A DNA stretch of 63,016 nt, filler included, from Choristocarpus tenellus KU-1152 (lineage: Eukaryota; Protista; Phaeophyceae): NCBI GenBank assembly GCA_964200185.2. It is 9 parts of 9 records of this genome, joined end to end, with 100 filler letters (N's around TTAATTAATTAA, not from the genome) between each part and the next. Parts side by side here need not be neighbours in the genome. Positions count along the whole stretch, not along the records: positions 29,031 to 35,825 come from CAXNAD020007333.1; 8 more parts are not named here. One strand, 5' to 3'. Numbering within the stretch: position 1 is the first letter of the stretch; each line of letters starts with the position of its first letter. A program made the position numbers and the translations under genes. The notes below the pieces were generated by a model. It was not told the DNA's origin. It searched no databases and saw only the letters and a program-made list of their open reading frames with translations. Shown piece by piece: positions 2,835 to 58,042 of the stretch.

Positions 2835-4418
2835 CAGTCGCTGGTGAGCTATGCGGGCGGCAAGGGACTCTACCGCATCCTCCAACCAGCATACTTCATC
2901 CCTGTACCTTCTACGGCTGATACATCGTTTGGGTAACGCAGCGGGTACTAGGAGTACGTCAAGCCTCGCGAGGCCTTGTGGTTCCTCCTGAGCCAGGCCA
3001 CGAAGGGGGCTGCAGCGATGATGATCAGCACCCACGAAAATAACTGAACCATGACGGGAGGGCAGCCTGGCTCGAGTTGGAGCAGCAGATCTATGGGGGG
3101 CACGTTGAGTTCCAGCGGCCCATGCAGCTTATAGCTCTCGAAATGAAGCTGCGGGACATGTACTGCTCGTCGGTGGAGGACGCTGCCGACTTCGTCATCC
3201 GTCTCGATCACGTACGGACAGAGTACGAGCAGCTGGAGGCGGTTGAGGAGGACGACGCCAAGAAGGGGGGGGCTCTGATCATCGGCATCAGGGACAGCAT
3301 GCCATAGGTGTTCGCACAGCTGTCCACAGCATCAGACCTCACCTACGACCAATTCAAAAACACTATAATCTCCTCCTCTTCATATATGACCACGGAGTTC
3401 ACAGGGGAAACGACTAGGATGAGCTTGGGCGCTATGACGATCAACACAGGTGCAGGGACACCAACAGGGAGACAGGGATCTGCGAGCGGCCTCGGTTCGA
3501 ACCAATATGCTTTCTGTCTTAAATTCAACCACAAATGAAAAGAGCGCCGCTCGTACTTGCCTGGCAAACCTCCTGCCAAGCGCCCTCAAGGGTTGGGGCG
3601 GCGCACAAATGTCCACCACCACCAACAAGAGACAGGAGCAGTAGTGGCGGAGGTGGTGGCAAGGCTAATCGCCAGGGATCATCACGGGGGTTCCTGGCAA
3701 TGAACGTGTGTCTGTTGGGGAGGACATGTAAACAGGATTGTCGAGGCAGCTCTCCTGTCCTCATCTCGCGATCTGTCCAAGGCCATCAGTCTACTTTGCG
3801 ACTCGAGTGCAAATGTGCACCTTACCTCCCGACTCCGGGACTTCACTGCAGCAACAGCTATCATCCGCACCTGCACCATTGGAAACAAAGGTACACTGGA
3901 CGCACGAGCAACTGGCGAGATGGTCCTGGAAGCAATTGACGAGACGAGACGCCGACCACGATTGTACTCCAGGATGTGCTCTGGGTACCGGGTCTGCCAT
4001 ACAGGCTTCTCAGCACAGGCAGCGTGCGGCGCAAGGGAGGTGAGTTCGTCGGCTCAGGGACCAGGAGTAGATACATCCAGCCCAACAAGGGGGCAGCAAA
4101 GATCCACTTGGAGGAGGAGAGAGCCTTTCGGATGCTGCGAGCTTACGTTTATGTAAAAAAGGGGAAGAGGAGCAACGCAATGGTCAATGCTAGCAACGCC
4201 AATAAGCAGCAGCATCTCTCCCTCTTCGACTGGCACAACATCATGGGTCACCTCGACCCATTCGTGATCAAGCACCTGGAGAAACGAGGCCTCCTGGACA
4301 TCACAGATGCCACAGTCGTCTCAGAGCTCCACTGCCAGGTATGTAAGGAGTGTAAGTCCGAGACATTAAATTAAGCACAGGGCGGCCGAAGTCCCAAGAC
4401 GGTTGAGCAGGTGGTGCA
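2835..4418 (+). mobile_element. Copia family-1 gag-protease-GAG-pre-integrase (degenerate), opposite orientation to its neighbours
   Basis: SLVSYAGGKGLYRILQPAYFIP matches the gag at 2420-2106; zinc-knuckle remnant FCLKFNHK; protease-like PDSGTS; DWHNIMGHLDP...CQVCKECK. Several stops and frameshifts. Confidence 0.85.
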
Positions 4419-4785
4419 TGTGCAAAAAAGAGCTGTTCCAACAGAGTTTGTGCTTCATGTGTTATGAATGAATTTATTAGCGAAGGAAGCACCATCCCTC
4501 GAGGTGGAGGGGGGGGAGTGCTCTGCCTCGTTATGTTTTGTGCACATCAGCAGACACCTCAGAACGTGTCTGTGTCTGTCGTCGCACTACGTCACTCGTT
4601 CTGCGTCAGCTCCTTCTATTTAGCAAAAGTAAAAAATCTACTAATCGAAAATCGAACGTCTTACTCTAATCCAAGCACACGAAAACAAGTGATTGACAAT
4701 TAGGTCACTCAGTCAACCTTTTCGTTACATAAGACTGGTTAGCAAACACATAAGAAATCTGTAGACTACAAGCCTATATTGCACA
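4419..4785 (-). repeat. Copia family-1 LTR (3' LTR with PPT)
   Basis: TGTGCAA...TTGCACA termini, then CTCCCCC (minus-strand PPT); homologous to the other two LTRs. Confidence 0.9.
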
Positions 4786-6328
4786 CTCCCCCATGAGCGT
4801 GCACAAAGTTGCTGACAAAAGCTCACTCCCGACGTGAAAGCACAGAATGCACAAAATCAGACGAAATATGGCCCTTGCACAAAGAATTGGTCAAAATATC
4901 AGCCAGTTGTTTTGATGTTGGAACGTATTCTACGTGGAACAGAACCTGGTCCACGTATTCTCTGGTGCACTTCAGCTCCATGCCCACACGCTTGGTTCTC
5001 TCGTTGAAACCCGTGATGCTGCCCGCCTAGATAGCACCAAGGTTGTCACAGAACCAGGGAAAGGAGTCTGGTGCTGTATGTAGTATGTCGATGTCCCCCA
5101 GAATGTCTTGAAGGTAAATGCAGTGTGGCATGCCGTATGCCATTGCCATCCACTCTGCCTCTGAGCTGGAGAGGCTAACGGCCGGCGCCTTGAAGCTTGG
5201 AGCACCAGGCAATTGGCGATCCGTTGAACAATAGTAGGTAACCTGTGGTACTCCTGCTTGTTTGGGAGTCGGTGCCCCGGTTGGAATCCCCATACCCCAC
5301 CAAGAGCTCTCCCTCCCCTCCATTTATATTACTTGTCCCTCGACCATAGTAAAGGCAGACGTCCAGTGTCCCTGCTACGTAGCACAGAACGTGTTGCAGT
5401 GGCAACTGTTACTTCTTTAGGCATTTTTCTGAAATGAGAATAGTTTTCGTAAGTTTTTCCCCTGACACATCTGCAAAATGTTAGAGGGCATAATATTAAA
5501 TGCATGGTCTGGGGCGTGCGTGGGGGGGTCTTACGCCATCTCACGCCCCGCTTTGTCAGCATGCGCTGGAACCTTACCCTTCTCCCGAACTCGTCATCGC
5601 CATCTCCACTGATGCACCTCAACATCACCCCTTCTCGAGCCAATTGGTCGATGTAGGTGGCGGTGGCCGCGGTAGCGGCGTCTTTCGTACGCAGACCCAT
5701 CACGCGTTTCTCCCTGCTCCCCTCGTCCACGAACAGCTGAAAGTACTTGATGCTTATCACGTCGAGGTCAGATGGTCCATCCAGGTGTGTGTGCACCACC
5801 TCCCCCACCGTCTTGGGACTGCCGCCGCCCTGTGCGTAACTGAGTGCTTCGGACTTACACTCCTTACATACCTGGCATTGGAGCTCTGAGGCGACTGTGG
5901 CATCTGCGATGTCCAGGAGGTCTCGTTTCTCCAGATGCTTAATAGCAGATGGGTTGAGGTGACCCATGATGTTGTGCCAGTCGAAGACGGAGAGACCTTG
6001 CTGCTTATTGGCATTGCTAGCATTGACCGTTGCCTGGCCCTTCTTCCCATTTTTCACCTGAAACTGGGCCCGCGGCATCAGGAAGGCTTCCTTCTCCGTT
6101 GGGCTGGATGTAGCTCCTCCTAATCCCTGAGTCCATGAACTCACCTCCCTTGCGCCGCACGCTTCCTGTGCTGAGAAGCCTGCATGGCAGACCCGGTACC
6201 CAGACACATCCGGGAGCACAATTGTGGTTGGCGTGCTCGTCTCTCGTCAGTTGCCTCCTGGACCATCTCGCCAGTTGCTCGTGCGTCCAGTGTACCTTTG
6301 TTTCCAATGGTGCCGGTGCGGGTGATAG
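4786..6328 (-). mobile_element. Copia family-1 pol remnant (protease end, integrase, RNase H; RT core deleted)
   Basis: DWHNIMGHLNP..CQVCKECK (HHCC), VHTHLDGP, YFQLFVDE, ISGDGDDEF, TPPRTPQ (integrase); GYGDSNRGTDSQTSRSTTGY and SLSSSEAEW (RNase H). Foreign ~100 bp at 5405-5500. Confidence 0.88.
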
Positions 6329-28320: not shown

Positions 28321-28795
28321 TCACATTACCATCCCTTCCCCTTCTCCCCCATACTTTTCATGTTCCTCTTGGTTCACCTGATGTGCCTGCATCCACTCCT
28401 CCACTTCCTGCTCCGTCAATCGTGTCTTCACCTCTGCATTCACCAATGCTTCAAACGCCGGCCCAAAAAACATCTGCATACCATCAGGAATCCCAGCTGC
28501 AGCTTTCCCTGCTAGGTCCTCCTCCCTTCCCCCTATCCCTGCTTCTACCTCTGCATCTGTCCCATTGCCTGCGCCATCTTTCCCCAAGTCCTGTAATTCC
28601 TTACTTCGCTCCAAGAGATCTCGTAGCGCCAAATAGCGGTCCTCTACCCCAGCTACCTTCTCAAACCCCTCGGATTTTTTACTCCCCACTCCAGAGCGGG
28701 TTCCAGAGTCTCTGGGGCGACCAGAACCACCTCCAACAAGCGCGTTGGTCTCTGCCACCCATGCCTGAACCAGTATTACCTTATTGGCGAGCTGC
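28321..28795 (-). CDS. Probable exon of an unknown G/E-rich protein
   Basis: Open frame LANKVILVQAWVAETNALV...EAKTRLTEQEVEEWMQAHQ-like segment preceded by a pyrimidine-rich CAG; no domain recognised. Confidence 0.45.
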
Positions 28796-29292
28796 ATAAC
28801 AGCAAAATATAAACACAAATTTGGGATTTGGAGAACAGAAGGTTCAGGAAAAGTTGGAATTTTCATGGAAAGAGAAGCAAAGGAGAGAGCCAGAAACATG
28901 TGGGGGGGTGGGGGAGACAGCAGGATTTAGNNNNNNNNNNNNNNNNNNNNNNNNNNNNNNNNNNNNNNNNNNNNTTAATTAATTAANNNNNNNNNNNNNN
29001 NNNNNNNNNNNNNNNNNNNNNNNNNNNNNNCCCCAGATACTTTGACCCAGGAGACACAACATCCACACTACATATGAACATTGAGTGGGGTGTAACTCAT
29101 GTGTGTTATGGTCTCCACTATTATGGGAATACATATTGTTGAAGTGTTGCATTGCTCGAAGATCGGAACATTGTATTCTACTACATAGTGTAAGATATAA
29201 TCAAGCAAGAGGCATCCAAGATAGATGAGGGTAATGAGTAGGGTAACTTGTAGGGATTGGTGGTAGAGATATACACTGCAATCTGCAAGCAC

Positions 29293-30501
29293 CTTTCCTT
29301 GCGGTCCTTCGGCCTCATCGTACTGCCCTTCCAAGTACAACAGGTCTGGCAATACGAAGCTCAGCCCACTCCAATTTTCTTTGGCTAATTTGATCATCTC
29401 TTTCAGCAGTTCGCCAGATGCATTCATGAATACTTCACTGGGGTCGGTTGCTTCCGTGACGCCGAAATCTCGGCCCCACTCGTACACACTATGTTGACCG
29501 ACTTTCAAGTTGAAACATTCGGCGAGGTGGAACTGGATCTCACACAGATGTGAACGTTTCCGTTTGCCTCTCAGATTTATCATGATGACGGCTTCGATAT
29601 CTCTGTAGCCATTGGGCTTACAGTTTCCCGTGAAGCCATTACGCACCTGGAAGATATCATGCACCTGGAAGAAATGGTTTCCATCACACAAAGGACAGAA
29701 AGTTCAGTTGAATATCGGATAGTGCATTCATACGGTGTTGCACTAGATAGTCATGCTGGTGTTCTCGGTACAGCACATCTCTGACATAGTCTACAAATCA
29801 AGAACAAAGCCACTACTTCCTCGAGGTGAGGAGAGACGCAAACATTAGGGCTCTTGCTTGAAACCATCATTCAACCTCCTCAGTGATGTCACACCACTAC
29901 GTTTCGTGAAATACCCATCGTGACCAACAATGCAAGAGAATGTTGATCTACTGCGTTCCCCCACCTTTCGGTGCTGTTTGAGCCGATGAAATACATTGAT
30001 GAGTTCTCTTGTAGTATCACAAACGATGGATATCCGTGCTAGGTCCGTCAGAGAACGAGGACTTCTATTCTTAGCCTTTCGCAGAGCGCTCTCTTTTGAT
30101 TTTACCGGAGCATGAATGATGGATAGCCCCATCTGCGATCTACACACATCAGCGACGAGGTCGTCGAGTATAGCTTTGGCCTCGCCCGCCTCTTGAATGT
30201 AGGCATCTGCAGATGCCAATAAGCGTGGTTGCAGAAGCCGTTCAGAATGCTGGTCAATGTTGATGTTCGCCAGTTCATCAACCCAGCCCCCTTTCCACGC
30301 CAGTTCATCATAATCTCGGTGATACTGCATAACCCAGAGAACCTTGATGTAGGACAACATTCTGAACTTCGCTTCCAACTCCAGTGAGCTTGAAGCGTTC
30401 ATCAGTTTCTTCTCTAGCTCAAGTACAGATGAGATATCGGCCTGTGTGCTCTCTACTTTTTCTGTTGAAGTCAAAGGGATCTCCATGAGTGTAGATGTCA
30501 T
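29293..30501 (-). CDS. RelA/SpoT-like (alarmone-synthetase-fold) nucleotidyltransferase domain protein, exons ~30501-29965 and 29664-29293, TPR-like segment at the end; 3'-partial
   Basis: Phase-0 GT-AG intron joins PVKSKESALRK...LTDLARISIV...KQHRK to VHDIFQVRNGF...NGYRDI...HLCEIQFH, the motif order of the RSH synthetase domain; ends LPDLLYLEGQYDEAE at another GT donor. Confidence 0.72.
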
Positions 30502-31379
30502 CTCCTTCCCCTTCCGCCTTGGGGAATTGCAGGCCTACGATCCGACCTGGCACCACCAACGTCAGCGGTCGACCTCGAACCTGAATCAGTAAGTGTTACT
30601 CGTTAGGACTCTCCAGTAATAGTTCTATGTTGTCCTTCCACACATTGACATTTGGGTAGGTGAAGGGAAAGATGAGATCAACGGTGGAACCCAAATATTT
30701 CTTTTCAATGCGGATGAAAATCAACAATTTTTGCTCGGAGGTAGAGAACATACAAATCGAAATATATTGAAAAAAATAATATCAAGTATTTAGAGGTACA
30801 ATATAGATATACAACAAAACGACATGATATGATCGACCATTGAATAGACTATACTTTGACTTTAAACTATTCATTTTCTGGAGGAAGTTTCGTTGTAGAA
30901 AATGTTTTTCCGTTTTGATGTAGGTTATTTCTTCCTTCCATCTTTCTTGTCCATAAAGATCATTCTAAAATCGTGGAAAATGCGACTAAGTAAAGAAAAT
31001 AATTCTGACGATCTCGTTGAGGAACAGTATTACATACAAGTTGACCAATAATATAATAGGGTGATGGAAGTAGTAAAGTAGTGGAGGAAGTTCGGAAGAG
31101 TTGGGTAAAGCGTAGATAGACTGGGCACAAACAACTCTCGATCTTGTCCTAAACGTTACATGTTGGCAGCCCATGATGCCAGGATGACGAGGAGGTCACA
31201 ACACGAAATCACCCGCTTCTGAGCTGGATCGGATCCGAATCTTATCAGAAGAACCCTCCGACTAATGGAGAGGAACAAGGGAGAGAAAGTTATTTACTAC
31301 CCTAAACCTCCACTAGAGCCAGTATGGGCGTCCACATATCCCTTGGAACCAACACTCTAGAGTTTAGAGTCGCCACCAA

Positions 31380-32255
31380 GGAAGAGAGGGCGATGTATCC
31401 AATAGGTGCAAGGTGGCCAGGTGCAGGAGTCACAATACTGACACCCCACATACTGACACTTGCCCTAGGGTGGGAGGATAGGTTTGCGAGCACATGCCAA
31501 TAGAGAAACGCGTAGGCCAACTCTGCAGGGGAAGGGGCACCTGTTCCACTATGGAAGTTGGCAGCCCGTTTATATTGGACTGGAACTTCTGTACGATGTG
31601 GTGTTCCATGCTGGGACACCATACAGGGACAAAGATCTACTTCTGGACATTATTTTGGTGGAGGCCCAATCTGGCTTTCATTTGTCCCACTCAACCACTA
31701 CCGATGGTGTAAATAGTCGCTGCAGCCGAGGTGCGAGCGTGCACCCATTACGAGGGATGCTTTCGCCCAAGTATATTTAATCTCAACACCCTCGTGGAGG
31801 AAAGTTTTATTCTAACCCTAACCCTTGATAAGCAAGGAGAGAGCTTCCTGGATGGATTAGTCACCCATGCACCAGGGGGTATTACCTCAAAGGGGCAGTC
31901 AGTACAGAAGTGGATCTTTCGGGATGTGCCATGTATTTCAAGGTAGAGACACCAGGCAGGTGGGCAAGAAGGGGCCTAAAAGGTTCTTAGGATACTTCCC
32001 TAGCTCCTCACACACCTTCATAGGGCTAAGTTAGGTTTGAAGGACAGTAATGTGCATATTAATTTGTAGCGAACAATCTTCAAGGGGATATTGTTGTGTT
32101 GTGTTGTTTGTAAACAGTATCTATTTTTGGGAGAGGTGCCTTAGCTTTGACGACAACTGTTGTAACTACAAAAGTAGTCCTTGTCATATTGTTTCGGTCT
32201 TGTTCCCCAACCTCTCCCCCTAAACATCTCACAAATGTCAGAAGGCTGTATAATG
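31380..32255 (+). mobile_element. Degenerate CRE-like non-LTR retrotransposon 3' part (restriction-like endonuclease region, 3' UTR, terminal hairpin)
   Basis: DKDLLLDII...EESF...LDKQGESFLDGLVTHAPGG is homologous to 34921-34658; 3' segment 31945-32056 recurs at 34216-34315 and (minus) ~34620-34735. Confidence 0.6.
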
Positions 32256-32384
32256 TATGTTTTCCTAGGTCCTCGTCCATCTTCATAGCACTAAGGTAGG
32301 TTAGAAACATAGGATGGTACACACTACTTTAGTAGTGAACAAACTTAAACTGTGTATTGTTGTATTGTTTGTTTTCGAATATTA

Positions 32385-34079
32385 CTACCTCTATGCCATA
32401 AGTTTGTGCCGCGAAACATCTGGGTTCGCCGAGCGAGAACGGCGCCGAATTGAACGATAACCCTGCACAATGAAATCAGGTTGACAATATCAGCTTTCAG
32501 AAAAGGTGTGGATCGAGGATCATAAGGTAGAAACTCGAGGTACTTTAAACCATCAAACTAGGGATCTTTTTGGGGGTGATTTTGAGGCCAGAACTGGGCA
32601 CGTCAAGGGTCAGAACGTCCGCATGGCAACCCCCCCGTCGATCCCCCTGCGTAGGAAGGATGCCCAAGTGTTCCTGAATACCAGGGTTGCGCTTGTAGTG
32701 CGGCACGCCCTTGCGATGGTCCCTGGCGAGCTTAAACTGCAGCCTCAAGTTGGGCCAGCCCTCGCAGCGGAGTTTGGAGTGTCCGAGAGTTACATATGAG
32801 GGCTCTGGGAGGACGTCGCCAATCAGCTTGCCCGTCGCTACAGGCTTGACCTAGGGATGGCGGCACATAGTGGGCGGCCTTCGGAACTCACACCGACCAA
32901 GATGGCCGCAATACATAGTATCAACTCCGATAATCGGTTATCCACAGTGCGTCATCAGGAGACAATGAAGATGGTCACCAAGGGGCTGAATTATAGCACG
33001 AGCACCTTAAACAGGTGGTTGGACCATGCCGAATCGCCGCTGGATCAAACCCAAGCTTAAATCGTGGCAAAGGGTATGAAGAATGGACTTTGTTTGCCAT
33101 CAAGTGGACCGGGAGCGTGGTGTGTATGCCTCCATGGCAAACACAATCCACGTGGATGAAACCTGGTTTTACCTGATGGCTGAAGGGGAAAGGGTTAGGG
33201 TATTTCTGCATGAGGATGATAGCGACCTTCCAGGGTCCCCTACTGTGCAGCACAAGAGTCATACTCCCAAAACCATGATCATTGCAGTCAACGCCCACCC
33301 AGATTCGGCTCACAGCTGTGATGGAAGGCTTGGTGTTTGATGTTTTTGTGTGCACCAAAAACGGCAGACAGGACAAGCAACAACCATAAAAAGGGGATGT
33401 GTATGAACAGGACTGTACTTTAGACCATTTGTGGTACAGGAAGTGGTACACGGAGAAGTTACCGCCTGCAATCGAGACTATGATGCCTTGGTAGCAGGGG
33501 GAGCATGTTGTCGTTCAGCAAGATGGTGCCACCCCCCCCCATGGGCAAGGGCAACTCAGAAATCTTGTAAGGAGCAGGGAAGACTGAGGGTTGGTCGATT
33601 AGGCTTGTGATGCAGCCATCTAACTCCCCCGACCTCAATATCATGGACATGTGCTTCTTCAGGTCTTTGAAATGCCGGGTGATGGGAGAGTGGTTTTGGG
33701 TCCGTCGAAGATATGGTGAAGGTCATTAAGAAAACAGTATGAGGGGTATGATGAAACCACACTTGAGAGGGCTTGGTAGCTCATTTTTGTGGTGTACAAT
33801 CAAGTACTTTGATATAAAGGGGGGAATAACTTTGGTGTGGAGCACACAGGGGTAAGGAAGAGGCAGTTGTCTGGTGAGCTTGAAAACATGCCGAAGGTAG
33901 AAATGGAGGCTTTTACTGTGGCTGATAAAATTGTGATGGATGGGGAGTAGTAATAATAAGAAAACTGATCCTAACCAGAAATTCGTCAGGGATTCCAAAT
34001 CTTCTTTCAGAAATGAATTTCATCAACATCTTCACAAATTTTATGGACAACACAGCACAGACTTATGACACGGAGGTAG
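32385..34079 (+). mobile_element. Complete but degenerate Tc1/mariner element of plant-mariner (DD39D/Stowaway-related) type
   Basis: TIRs CTACCTCTATGCCATAAGTTTGTGC / GCACAGACTTATGACACGGAGGTAG with TA on both sides; motifs IHVDETWFY, VVQQDGA, QPSNSPDLNIMD(MCFF); stops and frameshifts. Confidence 0.93.
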
Positions 34080-34429
34080 TACATATTTTTGGGAGGTATG
34101 TTTGAGCTGACAACAATTGCTGTATTTAGAGCAGTCCTTCAAAATTTGTTTGGTTTTGGTTTTTCTCCCTCTGACACATCTATTTCTAAAATGTGAGAGG
34201 ATGTAAGATTATTACAGAGACACCAGGCAGGTGGGCAAGAAGGGGTCTGTCAGATTCCCGAGCTCCTCGCCCACCTTCGTAGGTTAAGGTAGGTTCAAAT
34301 CATAGCAATGTAGTACACCATTGCATTAGTGACAACTGTTATTTTTTATGCAGTCCTGCGCGATATGCATTTGATATTTTCCCTTACATATTTGCAAAAT
34401 GTGAGAGGGTATAACCTTTGTAAACATGT

Positions 34430-34925
34430 ATTTTTTGTTGTTACGTCTTTGACATTTGGAGATGTATCTGGGAAAAAGCCAAATCAGTATCACAAGGACC
34501 TCTGAAAGAAAAACAGTTCTCGTAAATTTGCAAGATATCTCTGAAAACTCTACTTATTATTTGAATGCGCTGAGCTATGGTACTAACACCACCTTAAAGC
34601 TTTGAAATTCCGATGTTATGTGTAGATTACTTCTATGCCTCCAACCTATTTTAGCCCCTACACAGGTGGGCGAGGATCTAGGTAAGCATTCCAATGATCT
34701 GACAGGCCCCTCCTTGACCATTTGCCTGGTGCCCCCAGCTTGAAAAGCATGACATGTCTCGAGAGAGTCACTTGTGTAATGATAGACACTATCTGTCCTA
34801 AGCGGGATTTGACAGCTCCTTTCCTGATGTAACCTCCCGTCCCTCTCCCCCCTATGGCGTGCGTAGCCAAGTTATCCAGAAAACTTTCTGCTTGCTTACA
34901 GAGGTGCCTAAAACTTTCCACGACG
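34430..34925 (-). mobile_element. CRE-like non-LTR retrotransposon 3' fragment with terminal hairpin
   Basis: ESFRHLCKQAESFLDNLATHAIGG...RKGAVKSRLGQIVSIITQVTLSRHV, then the shared 3' UTR and a hairpin copy at ~34447-34472. Confidence 0.65.
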
Positions 34926-34959
34926 GTGTTGAGTTTAAAGGTACAAGTTTATTTTATTG

Positions 34960-35147
34960 TTATTATTATTCCCTCTGACATTTTGGAGATATATACTGAC
35001 ATATGAATAGTTCTCATTGATTTCCCCTAACACATCTCCAAAATGTCAGAGGGAATAATAATAAATATATATATATATTATTACATATATGCCCTATATA
35101 TTATTTATTATTATTCCCTCTGACATTTTGGAGATGTGTCAGGGGGG
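34960..35147. repeat. Three alternating copies of a hairpin+(AAT)n motif, including a 43-bp inverted repeat (35024-35066 / 35103-35145)
   Basis: CCCCT(A/G)ACACATCTCCAAAATGTCAGAGGGAATAATAATAAAT and its reverse complement, one mismatch. Confidence 0.9.
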
Positions 35148-35233
35148 AAACAAATGAAAGCTTTGTTTTGCTCACGAATTCTGGATAATTATTATTTGCT
35201 TATTCCTTGTTTGCCATTCCTCTATTCTCTATT

Positions 35234-35352
35234 CCCCATTTGATGACCAACCAGTGCGAATGCCCTTCATCACTGATTGCCAGCCATCCCCCACATTTGA
35301 TGACCAACCAGTGCGAATGCCCTTCGCCCCTGATTGCCAGCCATCCCCCACC
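35234..35352 (+). repeat. 57-bp tandem duplication
   Basis: CATTTGATGACCAACCAGTGCGAATGCCCTTC...TGATTGCCAGCCATCCCCCA occurs twice. Confidence 0.9.
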
Positions 35353-37144
35353 TTTCAACCCCACATAAGTTACCGCTCCCCTCAACCCCACAGCAGTTCT
35401 CACACCACTCAACACCACTCCACAATCATCCAAGAACACCCCTTCAAGATCCACTTCCACCCGTGCCTTTGAGCTAGAAGACATCTACCCCGCCGTAACT
35501 TGACCCCCCCCTCTCAGTATTCCCGTCATTCGTGAGCAAGCGACAGGGTGGGTGGGCGGGAGAGCTTGCTCGGAGGTTGCCTCAATCTCCCCTCCTTGTC
35601 CTGTACCCCTGGTTCTCTTCCCTTTTTTCAATCACTGAATGCTGTTTCCCCCCTTCTTTTACCACTCATTTCCGTTAACCTTGTCTTCCCTTCCTTAACT
35701 GTTCGTTCTTTTCTTGCTTCCTTCTTTTTCTTTCCCCTGCGCCCATTTGTCCTGTAACAGCCGATTCCAAAAATTGAGGATGGAGCTTTTCATTGAGGAT
35801 GGGCTTGACCCAAAATTGACTGGGANNNNNNNNNNNNNNNNNNNNNNNNNNNNNNNNNNNNNNNNNNNNTTAATTAATTAANNNNNNNNNNNNNNNNNNN
35901 NNNNNNNNNNNNNNNNNNNNNNNNNCCCCCCCCCCAGATACTTTGAGCCTCATAGAAGTCTAACAAATCCCAGACCCATGGTTGAGATGTAGTCAGAAGA
36001 ACGTGATATACACATCTTGAGGAAATTCAACATACAGCAGAAAAAGCATGAAAAAAACAGCAAAAGCAACAAAATAACATAGCCCAGTTTAGATAAGAAG
36101 GGCAGTGAAGAAAAACCCAGGTGTAATTATAATACACTAGTAATCAATACGTGGGATAGGGCGCCATAAACATTATCAGATATAACCAGGTCCTACAGGG
36201 AAAAGAAGAAAAACAAAAGGAAATTCAGGATCATACCAGGTCGATCCAATACAAAAATACCACTCATAACATGTACTCCAGAATAAAAAGGAAAGAGGAA
36301 CGTTAGAAGAGTTAACCCCCCAAAAGAGAAGTCAATGAGATGAGAGTCAAACCAGCTGAGAGTTAGGCAGAGTTGTGTTTTAAGGATCCCCGGAAAGGTA
36401 AAGAAGTTGTCTTTTTGTACCATAGCAGAAAGAGCGTTAGCTGAATTGTGGTGTCGCTTTGTGCGTGGAAAGAAGGAATATCAACTTTGCGTGCACTATT
36501 GTGCACATAAAGCAATGAAATAGAGTGTATTGCATAGGGCAAGAAAAATGGACTAGAATGCCAAAGAGTCCAACCCTGCCTACCTCTCAATTGTTTTGGC
36601 TCCAAGCAACATTCAGCAGATAGATGAGTGTTCATGTGCCCTATCTACTTGGGCTGCCTTACCTGCTGCTTCAGCATGATGACATCAACAATTACAACTT
36701 CCTTCGAAAGCCACTTTAGAATGAAGTCCTTTATCCTGTCAACTACTCCCTCGTACCACTCCTTTTAGTTTATTGGCCTTGCACTCCACCCCTCAACCGT
36801 AATCCCTAACTTCCCCCAGGTTTTCTTCCAAGGCATATCCACCAGTTCTATTCCTGTCCACCTTTCTTCCGTTTTTCATCTGTAAGTTCACTAAACATCA
36901 ACAGCTTAGAGGGTCCCTATCCCTCATGAAGTTGACCCTGCAAAGAGGAGTCTCCAATTTTGCAAAGTTGCCTCGATACAGTCACACCAAGTCCTTACAA
37001 GGGGATGTTTATTAGGTCAATGTGTCATCGGTGAGTTCCGTTTGTGAAATCTGATGTGATGTAGAAGAAAATTTATGATTGTGAGATTTAGGCTTCATTT
37101 AGTGGACCTTACGAAAATCCTATGTCACACAAGCGTATGACAGG

Positions 37145-39248: not shown

Positions 39249-39278
39249 AATCATATGCCTTGGTAGAGGACTCTCTGT

Positions 39279-40784
39279 ATGACCGAGGGTGTACTTATCC
39301 GTAGGTACAAGAGGTTCGCGGTGATGTTGATGATTGCGGGTGAAGAAGAGGGGGACAAGGATCTGTTAGGGTTAGCTAGGTTAGTTCTTGGTCACACGTG
39401 TGCCATTCGAATAGACCATACTGTGCCTAGACCCCCACCCCTAAGATTCTATGTTACGTTGGAGGGCACTCGGGAGACCTGGGTGAGGTTCAGGTGCCGC
39501 AGGGAACACTTCCGTCAGCTGTTTGAAGTCATGAACTTTTCGCCTGTGTTCCATTGCAAGAACGGCAGTCTGTTTACGGGGGATGAGGGTTTCCTATTGC
39601 TAATTAGGAGACTGGGATACCCAGAGGAATTCGACATTGAGTGCAGTGAACTGAGTTGTCTCTTCAATACGGTCGTGGACTGGGTATGGCAGACTCACCG
39701 ACATCGCATCAAGGACAATGAGTCAAAGTATCCTAGAGGTTACGAGTTTTGCCCTGTCTGTCCGTTTGGGGTTTGGCTTCCCACAGGGTTTTTATGACAT
39801 TTTCCAACTTCGAAATGTTTTGGAGTAGGTAAAATGTATACGTTATTAAGAGGTATGTCCGGAACAAGGATATTGACACTCCCTAACAAAAGCGTTAGTC
39901 AAAATTACATCAAAATCAGAACATTGGATTTTTTTCCCCAAATAGACGCGGCTCTACCCTCTAAGATACTTTGACTCAATCTTGGGTTCTTTGCGCTGTT
40001 CTTCCCTCAGATGGCAGCAGCTATAGAAGGCAAAGGTGGGGTTGCTGTCCCGAGCATTTCTGTGGGTGTGCAATTTGTGTTGAAGTACAGGTGCTTGAGT
40101 AGCTCTTGTAATGACCCTCGATAGCACAACATGATGCTGCACTGACTTCAAACCCCTTCAAATATGCGTGTTGGCGACCATCCAGGAGGAGTTGCCTGCT
40201 CGGGATATATGATCATAGGATTTCTGGACGGGACACTTCAGCGCATGTGCCGGCTGGGTGGGCCCATGGAGCTGGACTTGCAGTGGGAGGTCTACGACGG
40301 TCACCACAGGGCGCATGGACTTGGGTTCCAGTCTGTGGAGTTCCCGGATGGGATGATTGGAGACATATTTGGGCCTATGTCTGGCCGCAGGCATAATGCG
40401 CACATTTTACGAGAAGGTAGATTAAACTACGGGTTAGGCAAGCTGGGGCAGGGTTTTCAGTACCAGGTGTACAGGGATGCAGCGTACCCTGTCCTCTCCC
40501 ATGTGTCTCGTGGGTTCAGAGGTGCCAATCTCACCCCGGCCCGGAAGGCATATAACAGGGAACTGTCGAGAGTGAGGATTTCTGTGGAGTGGGGCTTTGG
40601 CAAGGTAGTCCAGATGTACCCTTTTGTAGAGTTCAAGAAAAACCTCAAGCTCCTACTGCAGTCAGTTGGTATGTACTACTTAGTCACAGCCCTGCTGACA
40701 AATGCCCACACTTGTTTGTATGGGTCTCAGATCGGAATTTACTTCGACATGCCGTCTCCTTCAGTTGAAGCCTACTTTGCTTGA
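39279..40784 (+). pseudogene. PIF/Harbinger-like (PHIS, DDE_Tnp_4/HARBI1-type) transposase disrupted by a MITE
   Basis: RFRCRREHF, GDEGFLLLIRRLGYP, IGFLDGT, YDGHHRAHGLGFQSVEFPDGMI..FGPMSGRRHNA, YRDAAYP, YNRELSRVRISVEWGFG; frame continues KDN-LGFFALFFPQMAAAI once 39720-39980 is removed. Confidence 0.9.
39720..39977 (-). mobile_element. MITE family A copy with AAT TSD inside the transposase
   Basis: aat-GAGTCAAAGTATCCTAGAGGTTA...TACCCTCTAAGATACTTTGACTC-aat. Confidence 0.95.
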
Positions 40785-57730: not shown

Positions 57731-58042
57731 TGTGCAAAATAGGACAATAGTGAGGTGTACCTTATTTTGTGTTTTGATGATATTATTATGTTGAATTGAG
57801 TNNNNNNNNNNGATAGTATATCCGGATTATGTATGGGATTATGTATTGGTATTTATTCCGCATTCAACTACTTTGACATAACCGTTGACTTAGATAGGAA
57901 GCACAAATAAATAATAAACAAGCAATGAGAAGACACCACACAAAGGTCACTCTTCTAATTTCAACCATGTAATCATGTTCAGCAAAGGGGGTCATGTGAG
58001 GCTTCACACCTTCTTATCTTCACTACTAACAAGTAGCATTAC
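57731..58042 (+). repeat. LTR-like repeat family 2 copy (contains a 10-N gap)
   Basis: Starts TGTGCAAAATAGGA; matches 6329-6594 and 55701-56022. Confidence 0.85.

Follow-up and report, generated by a model that had tools for sequence, protein, structure and literature searches.

A spliced alarmone synthetase-like gene of Choristocarpus tenellus belongs to a brown-algal family carrying TPR arrays and encodes part of a candidate cytosolic immune receptor

The DNA analysed here (the window) is a stretch of 63,016 nucleotides from Choristocarpus tenellus KU-1152 (assembly GCA_964200185.2), in which unrelated contigs are strung together by eight N44-12mer-N44 linkers (12314-59935), with one 10-N gap at 57802; neighbours across the linkers are not genomic neighbours. 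The contig at 29031-35825 (CAXNAD020007333.1) carries, on the minus strand and near its end, a spliced gene, all features of which are given below on that strand. Exon 1 (29965-30501; 537 nt) codes for 179 residues (1-179) that make up a helical cap and the first half of a synthetase domain. Exon 2 (29293-29664; 372 nt, 124 aa, residues 180-303) codes for the second half of the synthetase, a helical linker and a degenerate first TPR unit. They are separated by intron 1 (29665-29964), of 300 nt, GT-AG and phase 0, and when joined (30501-29965 and 29664-29293) they form a stop-free frame of 303 codons. A second intron, also of phase 0, opens with a GT donor at 29292 and is truncated by the end of the contig (29031-29292); the linker that bounds the contig at 29030 lies 262 nt past this donor, and the downstream exons fall beyond the window. 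An open frame at 28321-28926 was considered as part of the gene and rejected; it lies on a different contig, is not joined to the gene and has no match in Pfam.

Three public runs, all from one single study, cover the stretch (X1, X2 and X3). A contig of 1,332 nt from X3, starting at 30683, omits exactly the 300 nt of intron 1, with CT..AC ends, and X3 has no depth inside the intron; intron 1 is retained in X1 and X2, the source of which may be DNA. X3 is not recorded as RNA, and we infer that the run is RNA because of the splice joint and the zero depth over the intron. The two exons and the phase-0 intron at 29964-29665, which an earlier note had proposed from the letters alone, are thereby borne out, with transcript-like support. 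The joint, together with fewer gaps in the alignment, is also why the acceptor at 29665 is preferred over that at 29647, which would keep the frame as well and was rejected. The X3 contig departs from the window at the donor 29292 and continues into a loose end of 240 nt, of which the first 30 letters, read by hand, form ten in-frame, stop-free codons that look like the beginning of the relatives' linker; these letters are absent elsewhere in the window. The 5' leader (30502-30683) is within the same spliced contig, and since an in-frame stop precedes the ATG inside this covered leader, the N-terminus is complete. The leader also holds a short uORF (30651-30625; ATGs at 30651 and 30645), in the frame of the main ORF but stopped, which could damp translation. 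Upstream of the gene, 31074-35825 consists of high-copy repeats, with a summed depth in X1 of up to ~180,000 versus 19 over the gene; the frame at 33080-33340, which has no match in Pfam, looks like a piece of a Tc1/mariner-type transposase. Transposon remains are also found at 39267-40784, with a DDE_Tnp_4 endonuclease at 40146-40784 (E 3e-14), and at 5329-6246, with a weak GAG-pre-integrase match.

The donor-ATP phosphate-binding motif of the predicted protein, K134-x3-S138-x3-K142 (30076-30102), is kept at its three positions in 49, 49 and 50 of 50 relatives, is alignable to Tas1, and has the spacing of K66/S70/K74 of FaRel2 (PMC11782079). It is followed by a catalytic Asp motif of the Apk1/RelV type, D153-x2-R156 (30034-30045), common to Tas1 and RelV-type proteins and with each residue present in 49 of 50 relatives, and by the G-loop GYRD at residues 198-201 (29599-29610; G in 50, Y in 49, R in 50 and D in 48 of 50), the predicted acceptor-nucleotide site. 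The E221-x-Q223-x-H225 motif (29527-29541; E in 49, Q in 49 and H in 36 of 50 relatives) comes next, and H237-x2-Y240-E241 (29479-29493; H in 49, Y in 50, E in 46), present in RelV-like proteins too, closes the domain. The four motifs named in the earlier note, K-x3-S-x3-K, D-x2-R, GYRD and E-x-Q, lie where it had read them (residues 134-142, 153-156, 198-201 and 221-223). K134, S138, K142, D153, R156, Y199, D201, E221, Q223, H237 and Y240 are found in the window copy and in 48-50 of the 50 relatives, and the conserved catalytic positions match residues by which FaRel2 binds ATP, Mg and the acceptor (PMC11782079); the donor K/S/K, catalytic D, G-loop Y and E-x-Q that mark membership of the SYNTH superfamily are all present. 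The window copy departs from the family consensus at K203 and N205 (each 48/50) and at L224, and has a 7-residue insert; the K203 and N205 positions are variable in RelV-type enzymes as well. The N-terminal helical segment (residues 1-88; 30238-30501) has no HD domain, in agreement with the earlier reading of the first ~120 residues, but this region is not featureless: residues 22-88 show a mean identity of 30% to 47 relatives and form helices in the model of a relative, and the synthetase domain begins at about residue 90. Nor is there a hydrophobic signal peptide: the hydropathy maximum in the first 35 residues is 0.72, the highest value among 49 relatives is 1.49, and by this proxy no hydrophobic N-terminal stretch that could serve as an export signal was found in the window protein or in the 49 relatives.

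The Pfam check proposed in the earlier note went against it, with no match to RelA_SpoT (PF04607) or to TPR in either exon. Among the matches listed (for TPR-rich relatives, the best 5 families), RelA_SpoT appears in 4 of 51 relatives, below threshold (18.6-21.6 bits against a cut-off of 27); neither the exons nor the family listings of the 51 relatives include an HD hydrolase, TGS, ACT or EF-hand match. By sequence, the best match of solved structure is Tas1 (E 0.037 with a single sequence, 7e-4 with a profile), and the XopAD model gave a weak score in 7 of 12 family members. The fold was predicted for a relative, P0042, which shares 36% identity with the spliced protein (pLDDT 87, pTM 0.79), and residues ~100-264 of the model match Tas1 (Z 13.2, rmsd 2.6, 149 aligned), RelP (Z 13.1, 3.0, 159 aligned), CapRel (Z 12.7, 3.4, 159 aligned) and RelQ (Z 11.9), the higher ranks being occupied by TPR proteins. 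A second model, of the relative P0065, had intron read-through tails in its input alignment and is poor at 186-227; Tas1 was its top match, at an E of only 0.077. Judging from the model of the relative, the domain is predicted to have the RSH synthetase fold, with its catalytic residues kept.

A HMMER search with exon 1 (E up to 0.001) returned 51 representatives, and word-based protein searches with exon 1 alone as the query returned no matches. The profile of 50 relatives, from which the window row was excluded, recognises the spliced protein with an E of 1e-74, and these two exons are its sole matches in the window; identity to the family is 33-37% over residues ~20-298, the lowest E in the local set being 4e-53. 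The N-terminal 310 residues of one relative led to 53 proteins, of which 41 are named, every one of them brown-algal (Ectocarpus species, Pylaiella, Laminaria, Hapterophycus and Sphacelaria). The family is multi-copy, ten distinct E. fasciculatus proteins being named, and is labelled in databases as 'unnamed' or 'kinesin light chain-like'; it is hidden under the latter label because the enzyme domain stays under the Pfam cut-off. The 50 relatives are those of 111 collected proteins that cover the catalytic core; they come mostly from Ectocarpus and are not independent. P0039 (Ectocarpus) and P0054 (Ascophyllum) share a 90% cluster and are near-identical in the tree, which is odd across two orders, and one of the two assemblies may hold DNA of another alga; the presence of the family in Fucales is for that reason unsure. 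GYRD is missing from 38 of the 51 exon 1 matches; of these unspliced relatives 36 are long enough to be scored, and 33 of them have a Val at an offset of 25-28 counted from the catalytic Asp, versus 12 of 31 in a control window. Val is what a GT donor yields, and the position of intron 1 thus appears to be old and conserved in the family.

TPR arrays, of 1-13 repeats at 42-aa spacing, are present in 42 of the 50 relatives, while the other eight, several of them partial, show no repeat; a P-loop pattern occurs in none of the 50. In most relatives the canonical repeats begin near residue 340, ~140 aa past GYRD. The coupling to TPRs claimed in the earlier note therefore holds for the family, whereas the array of this copy would lie past the end of the contig; it is very likely that the window copy also ends in TPRs. 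The partial repeat on which the note had relied is present as a stretch at residues 284-298 (29308-29352) that aligns with relatives, but it is not a canonical repeat: with an E of 0.02 on one sequence it stays below the canonical-repeat score, and it reads as a degenerate repeat about one 42-aa unit before the true array of relatives. The layout of the family is thus a helical cap, a synthetase, a linker and a TPR array. The repeat consensus is that given for the NB-ARC-TPR exons of Ectocarpus, the candidate receptors in which TPR repeats shuffle as phase-0 exons (PMC3341825). In a supplement of 2012, 8 E. siliculosus TPR loci, labelled as nucleotidyltransferase by SUPERFAMILY and not as NB-ARC, have runs of phase-0 exons, 3-13 of them of equal length, and these loci probably belong to the synthetase-TPR family. 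That automatic 'nucleotidyltransferase' label was all that a literature search, thin in its coverage of subscription papers, returned, with no description of the family; the main text of bioRxiv 10.1101/2024.02.19.579948 contains no whole-word RelA, RSH or alarmone. The brown-algal synthetase-TPR family is thus apparently undescribed, although each of its components has precedent.

Outside brown algae, a plasmid search led to a pair of tandem RelV-like synthetases with signal-peptide-like starts on a replicon of Photobacterium sp. DA100 (L015:2648-3436 and 3656-4480), for which the table of the record holds no gene. The family profile recognises a RelV-like protein of Photobacterium with a probability of 98.5 (E 3e-15, 161 columns), and by eye the pair looks to be of the Vibrio RelV/VpEAS type, the sequences of which carry TDLAR, GYRD, EVQ[L/F]H and H-x2-YE (supplement of PMC12691689). 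A scan of metagenomes yielded 13 loci; to judge by appearance, they code for phage virion or MuF-like proteins and for proteins of marine eukaryotes. In Bordetella phage PHB04 (L019:1757-4022) a portal gene is followed by a MuF-like GYRD-type synthetase, a small ORF and an HD hydrolase; the gene order is that of Apk2 loci, yet the G-loop is of the RelV type. On five eukaryote-like marine contigs (L003, L009, L010, L011 and L012) the GYRD-type domain is found in other settings, accompanied by weak matches to Tudor and ankyrin, by stretches that look membrane-like and, in L010, by a TPR-like tail (E 0.07 against the repeat profile, no score). Two Deinococcus plasmids (L016:2686-3557 and L020:1486-2423) carry a stand-alone GYRD-type synthetase with an ORF of 72-77 aa that overlaps or follows it, an arrangement like that of a toxin-antitoxin pair. 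A scan of GTDB gave one weak match only, of 30 residues and outside the enzyme domain, and searches of viral contigs and of a phage set with algal queries gave none; look-alikes in the atlas, unnamed eukaryotic clusters recognised under threshold, were set aside as leads only.

We built a tree of 35 rows, namely the window row, 19 of the 50 relatives and 15 others (L005, L008, L012, L013 and L014 excluded; the set holds no Tas1, Apk2, RelQ, fungal or Tde-SAS rows). The window row lies inside a brown-algal clade of 20 rows (95/97), among which it has the longest end branch (1.06). Four further eukaryote-like rows join this clade on long branches (91/84); monophyly of the eukaryotic rows at this support is not firm, and we claim no donor. 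The spliced intron and the placement in the brown-algal clade led us to reject bacterial contamination as a source of the gene. All GYRD-type rows are far from RelA and SpoT, and RelA itself reached an E of only 0.76 against the family profile, with no score, whereas RelV-like rows, at 76 and 65 bits, scored highest when 15 non-brown sequences were compared. Among bacteria, the nearest kin that we found are RelV/VpEAS-type and phage MuF-like synthetases, not RelA/SpoT, and splice, fold and tree together uphold the earlier proposal of an RSH synthetase that has introns, lacks a hydrolase and differs from the long plastid RSHs. The features of the Apk1/RelV branch are found here, namely a Syn1 region that lacks the canonical Arg, D-x2-R, E-x-Q-x-H and GYRD. 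On sequence grounds, the family would work like the Apk1/RelV branch but as a non-exported member of it.

How might such an enzyme be used in an algal cell? Enzymes of the Apk1/RelV branch work fast and do harm if they are neither exported nor inhibited; VpEAS and RelV, when deprived of their signal, are toxic in the bacterial cytoplasm (PMC12691689). The algal protein is probably cytosolic and, having no export signal (by the hydropathy proxy), no hydrolase and kin that are toxic when signal-less, it should need a brake. By analogy with Tde-SAS, the TPRs may gate the enzyme. The RelV/Tas1-type synthetase and the TPR array would then form a cytosolic two-part immune receptor, in which the TPRs keep the enzyme inactive as long as no trigger is bound; binding to the repeats would lead to the synthesis of alarmone nucleotides in the cytosol, which would drain GTP or ATP in the infected cell or act as a nucleotide signal in defence. 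That the output is defence we infer, and the immune role is now better founded than the earlier note could know; we give about an even chance to an alarmone synthetase that is cytosolic, gated by its TPRs and employed in defence. Alternatively, the same TPR-regulated enzyme could be active in general stress or developmental signalling. The spliced form was found in an ordinary run (X3), nothing in this analysis ties the gene to infection, and the ppGpp made by Tde-SAS, a protein of equal layout, serves the stringent response (PMC10434055). However, the many paralogues with 1-13 repeats and phase-0 repeat exons resemble diversifying receptors, the nearest kin of the enzyme are exported and phage-borne conflict enzymes, and plastid ppGpp is already handled by the long RSHs (PMC6881373), which makes a role in general signalling unlikely.

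The enzyme probably transfers a pyrophosphate group from ATP onto the 3'-OH of a ribose. As to the acceptor, the earlier note took GYRD and EIQFH as altered motifs that point away from GTP/GDP. This argument fails, because the motifs are normal for the Apk1/RelV branch and the RelV-type enzyme VpEAS makes only (p)ppGpp (PMC12691689); nor would GYRD-type motifs prove GTP. The Apk1/RelV-type branch includes G-specific, A-specific and mixed enzymes, and for that reason motifs do not decide the substrate, as is also indicated by Apk2, in which swaps of motifs left the specificity unchanged (PMC12226406). If pyrophosphate is transferred, we lean slightly towards GDP/GTP as the acceptor and (p)ppGpp as the product, over (p)ppApp or modified RNA ends. 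A sensor of the same design could instead use ATP or the 3' end of tRNA as the acceptor, as do Tas1/Apk2 and FaRel2/CapRel, and cause loss of ATP or a block of translation. Tas1, the best solved match by sequence, shares the top place by fold, CapRel coming close behind; both D-x2-R and E-x-Q-[F/Y]-H fit the Apk2 signature (PMC12226406), the phage MuF-like GYRD enzyme adjoins an HD hydrolase, as Apk2 does, and the motif swaps in Apk2 speak here too for a specificity that motifs do not fix. However, the G-loop is GYRD, as in RelV/VpEAS, and not the GxN form of Apk2, the RelV-like rows score highest of the 15 non-brown sequences, and Tas1 is favoured by default, since no solved RelV structure is among the matches; an ATP or tRNA acceptor is therefore rather doubtful. 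That the domain is a nucleotide-binding switch or scaffold with little turnover, in the position held by NB-ARC in NB-ARC-TPR genes, or that this copy represents a paralogue that is drifting or has been truncated, as might be suggested by its long branch, its insert of 7 residues and its divergence at three sites that the family conserves, is improbable, because the residues of the donor, metal-binding and acceptor sites are without exception present in this copy and in 48-50 of 50 relatives, its spliced frame is open, and the K203 and N205 positions also vary in RelV-type enzymes.

A TPR-gated synthetase acting in defence, the reading that we prefer, could be extended, though this is more tentative and we would not put it as high as an even bet: the family may represent a third exon-shuffling class of immune receptors in brown algae, beside ROCO and NB-ARC-TPR, in which a TPR sensor sits directly on a bacterial-conflict synthetase, with no NTPase switch, and recognition of a pathogen leads to cytosolic (p)ppGpp/(p)ppApp and a CapRel-like abortive infection. 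There are candidate sensors for brown-algal immunity, but we know of no output domain; the synthetase-TPR family offers one, and its product is open to assay. Whether eukaryotes produce alarmones outside plastids, and for what, becomes testable as well, and the GYRD-type domains in other fusions on marine eukaryote-like contigs hint at a wider use.

Each part of the layout can be compared with a known system. The RelV/VpEAS, Apk1(Tas1)-like family shares with the algal family a QP-helix start, K-x3-S/A-x3-K, TDLAR, GYRD, E-x-Q-x-H and H-x2-YE, in the same order, but the bacterial enzymes of the RelV/VpEAS type rely on a signal peptide or secretion tag for export and have no TPR array (PMC12691689); the algal protein is nuclear-encoded and spliced, lacks a signal and belongs to a family fused to TPRs. 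The survey of exported alarmone synthetases covers bacteria only and has no Ectocarpus entry (PMC12691689). With Tas1/Apk1 (PDB 6OX6) and CapRel the algal family has in common the fold (Z 13.2 and 12.7, from the model of the relative) and the catalytic residues, at ~21% identity to Tas1, and CapRel is likewise a sensor and an enzyme in one chain (PMC11782079). However, the algal family differs from Tas1/Apk1, Apk2 and CapRel in having no separate immunity gene and from Apk2 in its G-loop, and its sensor is a TPR array where CapRel has a pZFD. The arrangement of an N-terminal synthetase with a C-terminal TPR brake is found in Tde-SAS of Treponema denticola (DsRel family), the efficiency of which is cut 12- to 26-fold by its C-terminal TPR domain; that enzyme is bacterial and tetrameric, with a TPR domain of ~180 aa and a stringent-response role, and is likened to the algal family by layout alone (PMC10434055).

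Among eukaryotes, the algal family has the superfamily fold in common with the long plastid RSH1-4 of algae and plants (PMC6881373, PMC3153485) but none of their HD domains, plastid targeting or canonical RelA/SpoT motifs; divergent SAS genes occur in fungi, Dictyostelium and diatoms (PMC3153485). In fungal NLRs with an N-terminal RelA_SpoT domain, an RSH synthetase is the proposed immune effector of a eukaryote, as here, but those proteins are three-part, with a NACHT between the effector and the repeats (PMC4986451), and their domain reaches PF04607, whereas the algal domain stays under its cut-off. The brown-algal NB-ARC-TPR candidate receptors resemble the synthetase-TPR family in the 42-aa TPR consensus, the variable number of repeats, the phase-0 exons and the many paralogues (PMC3341825); they differ from it in that NB-ARC and the P-loop, absent from all 50 relatives, are replaced in the synthetase-TPR family by an enzyme domain.
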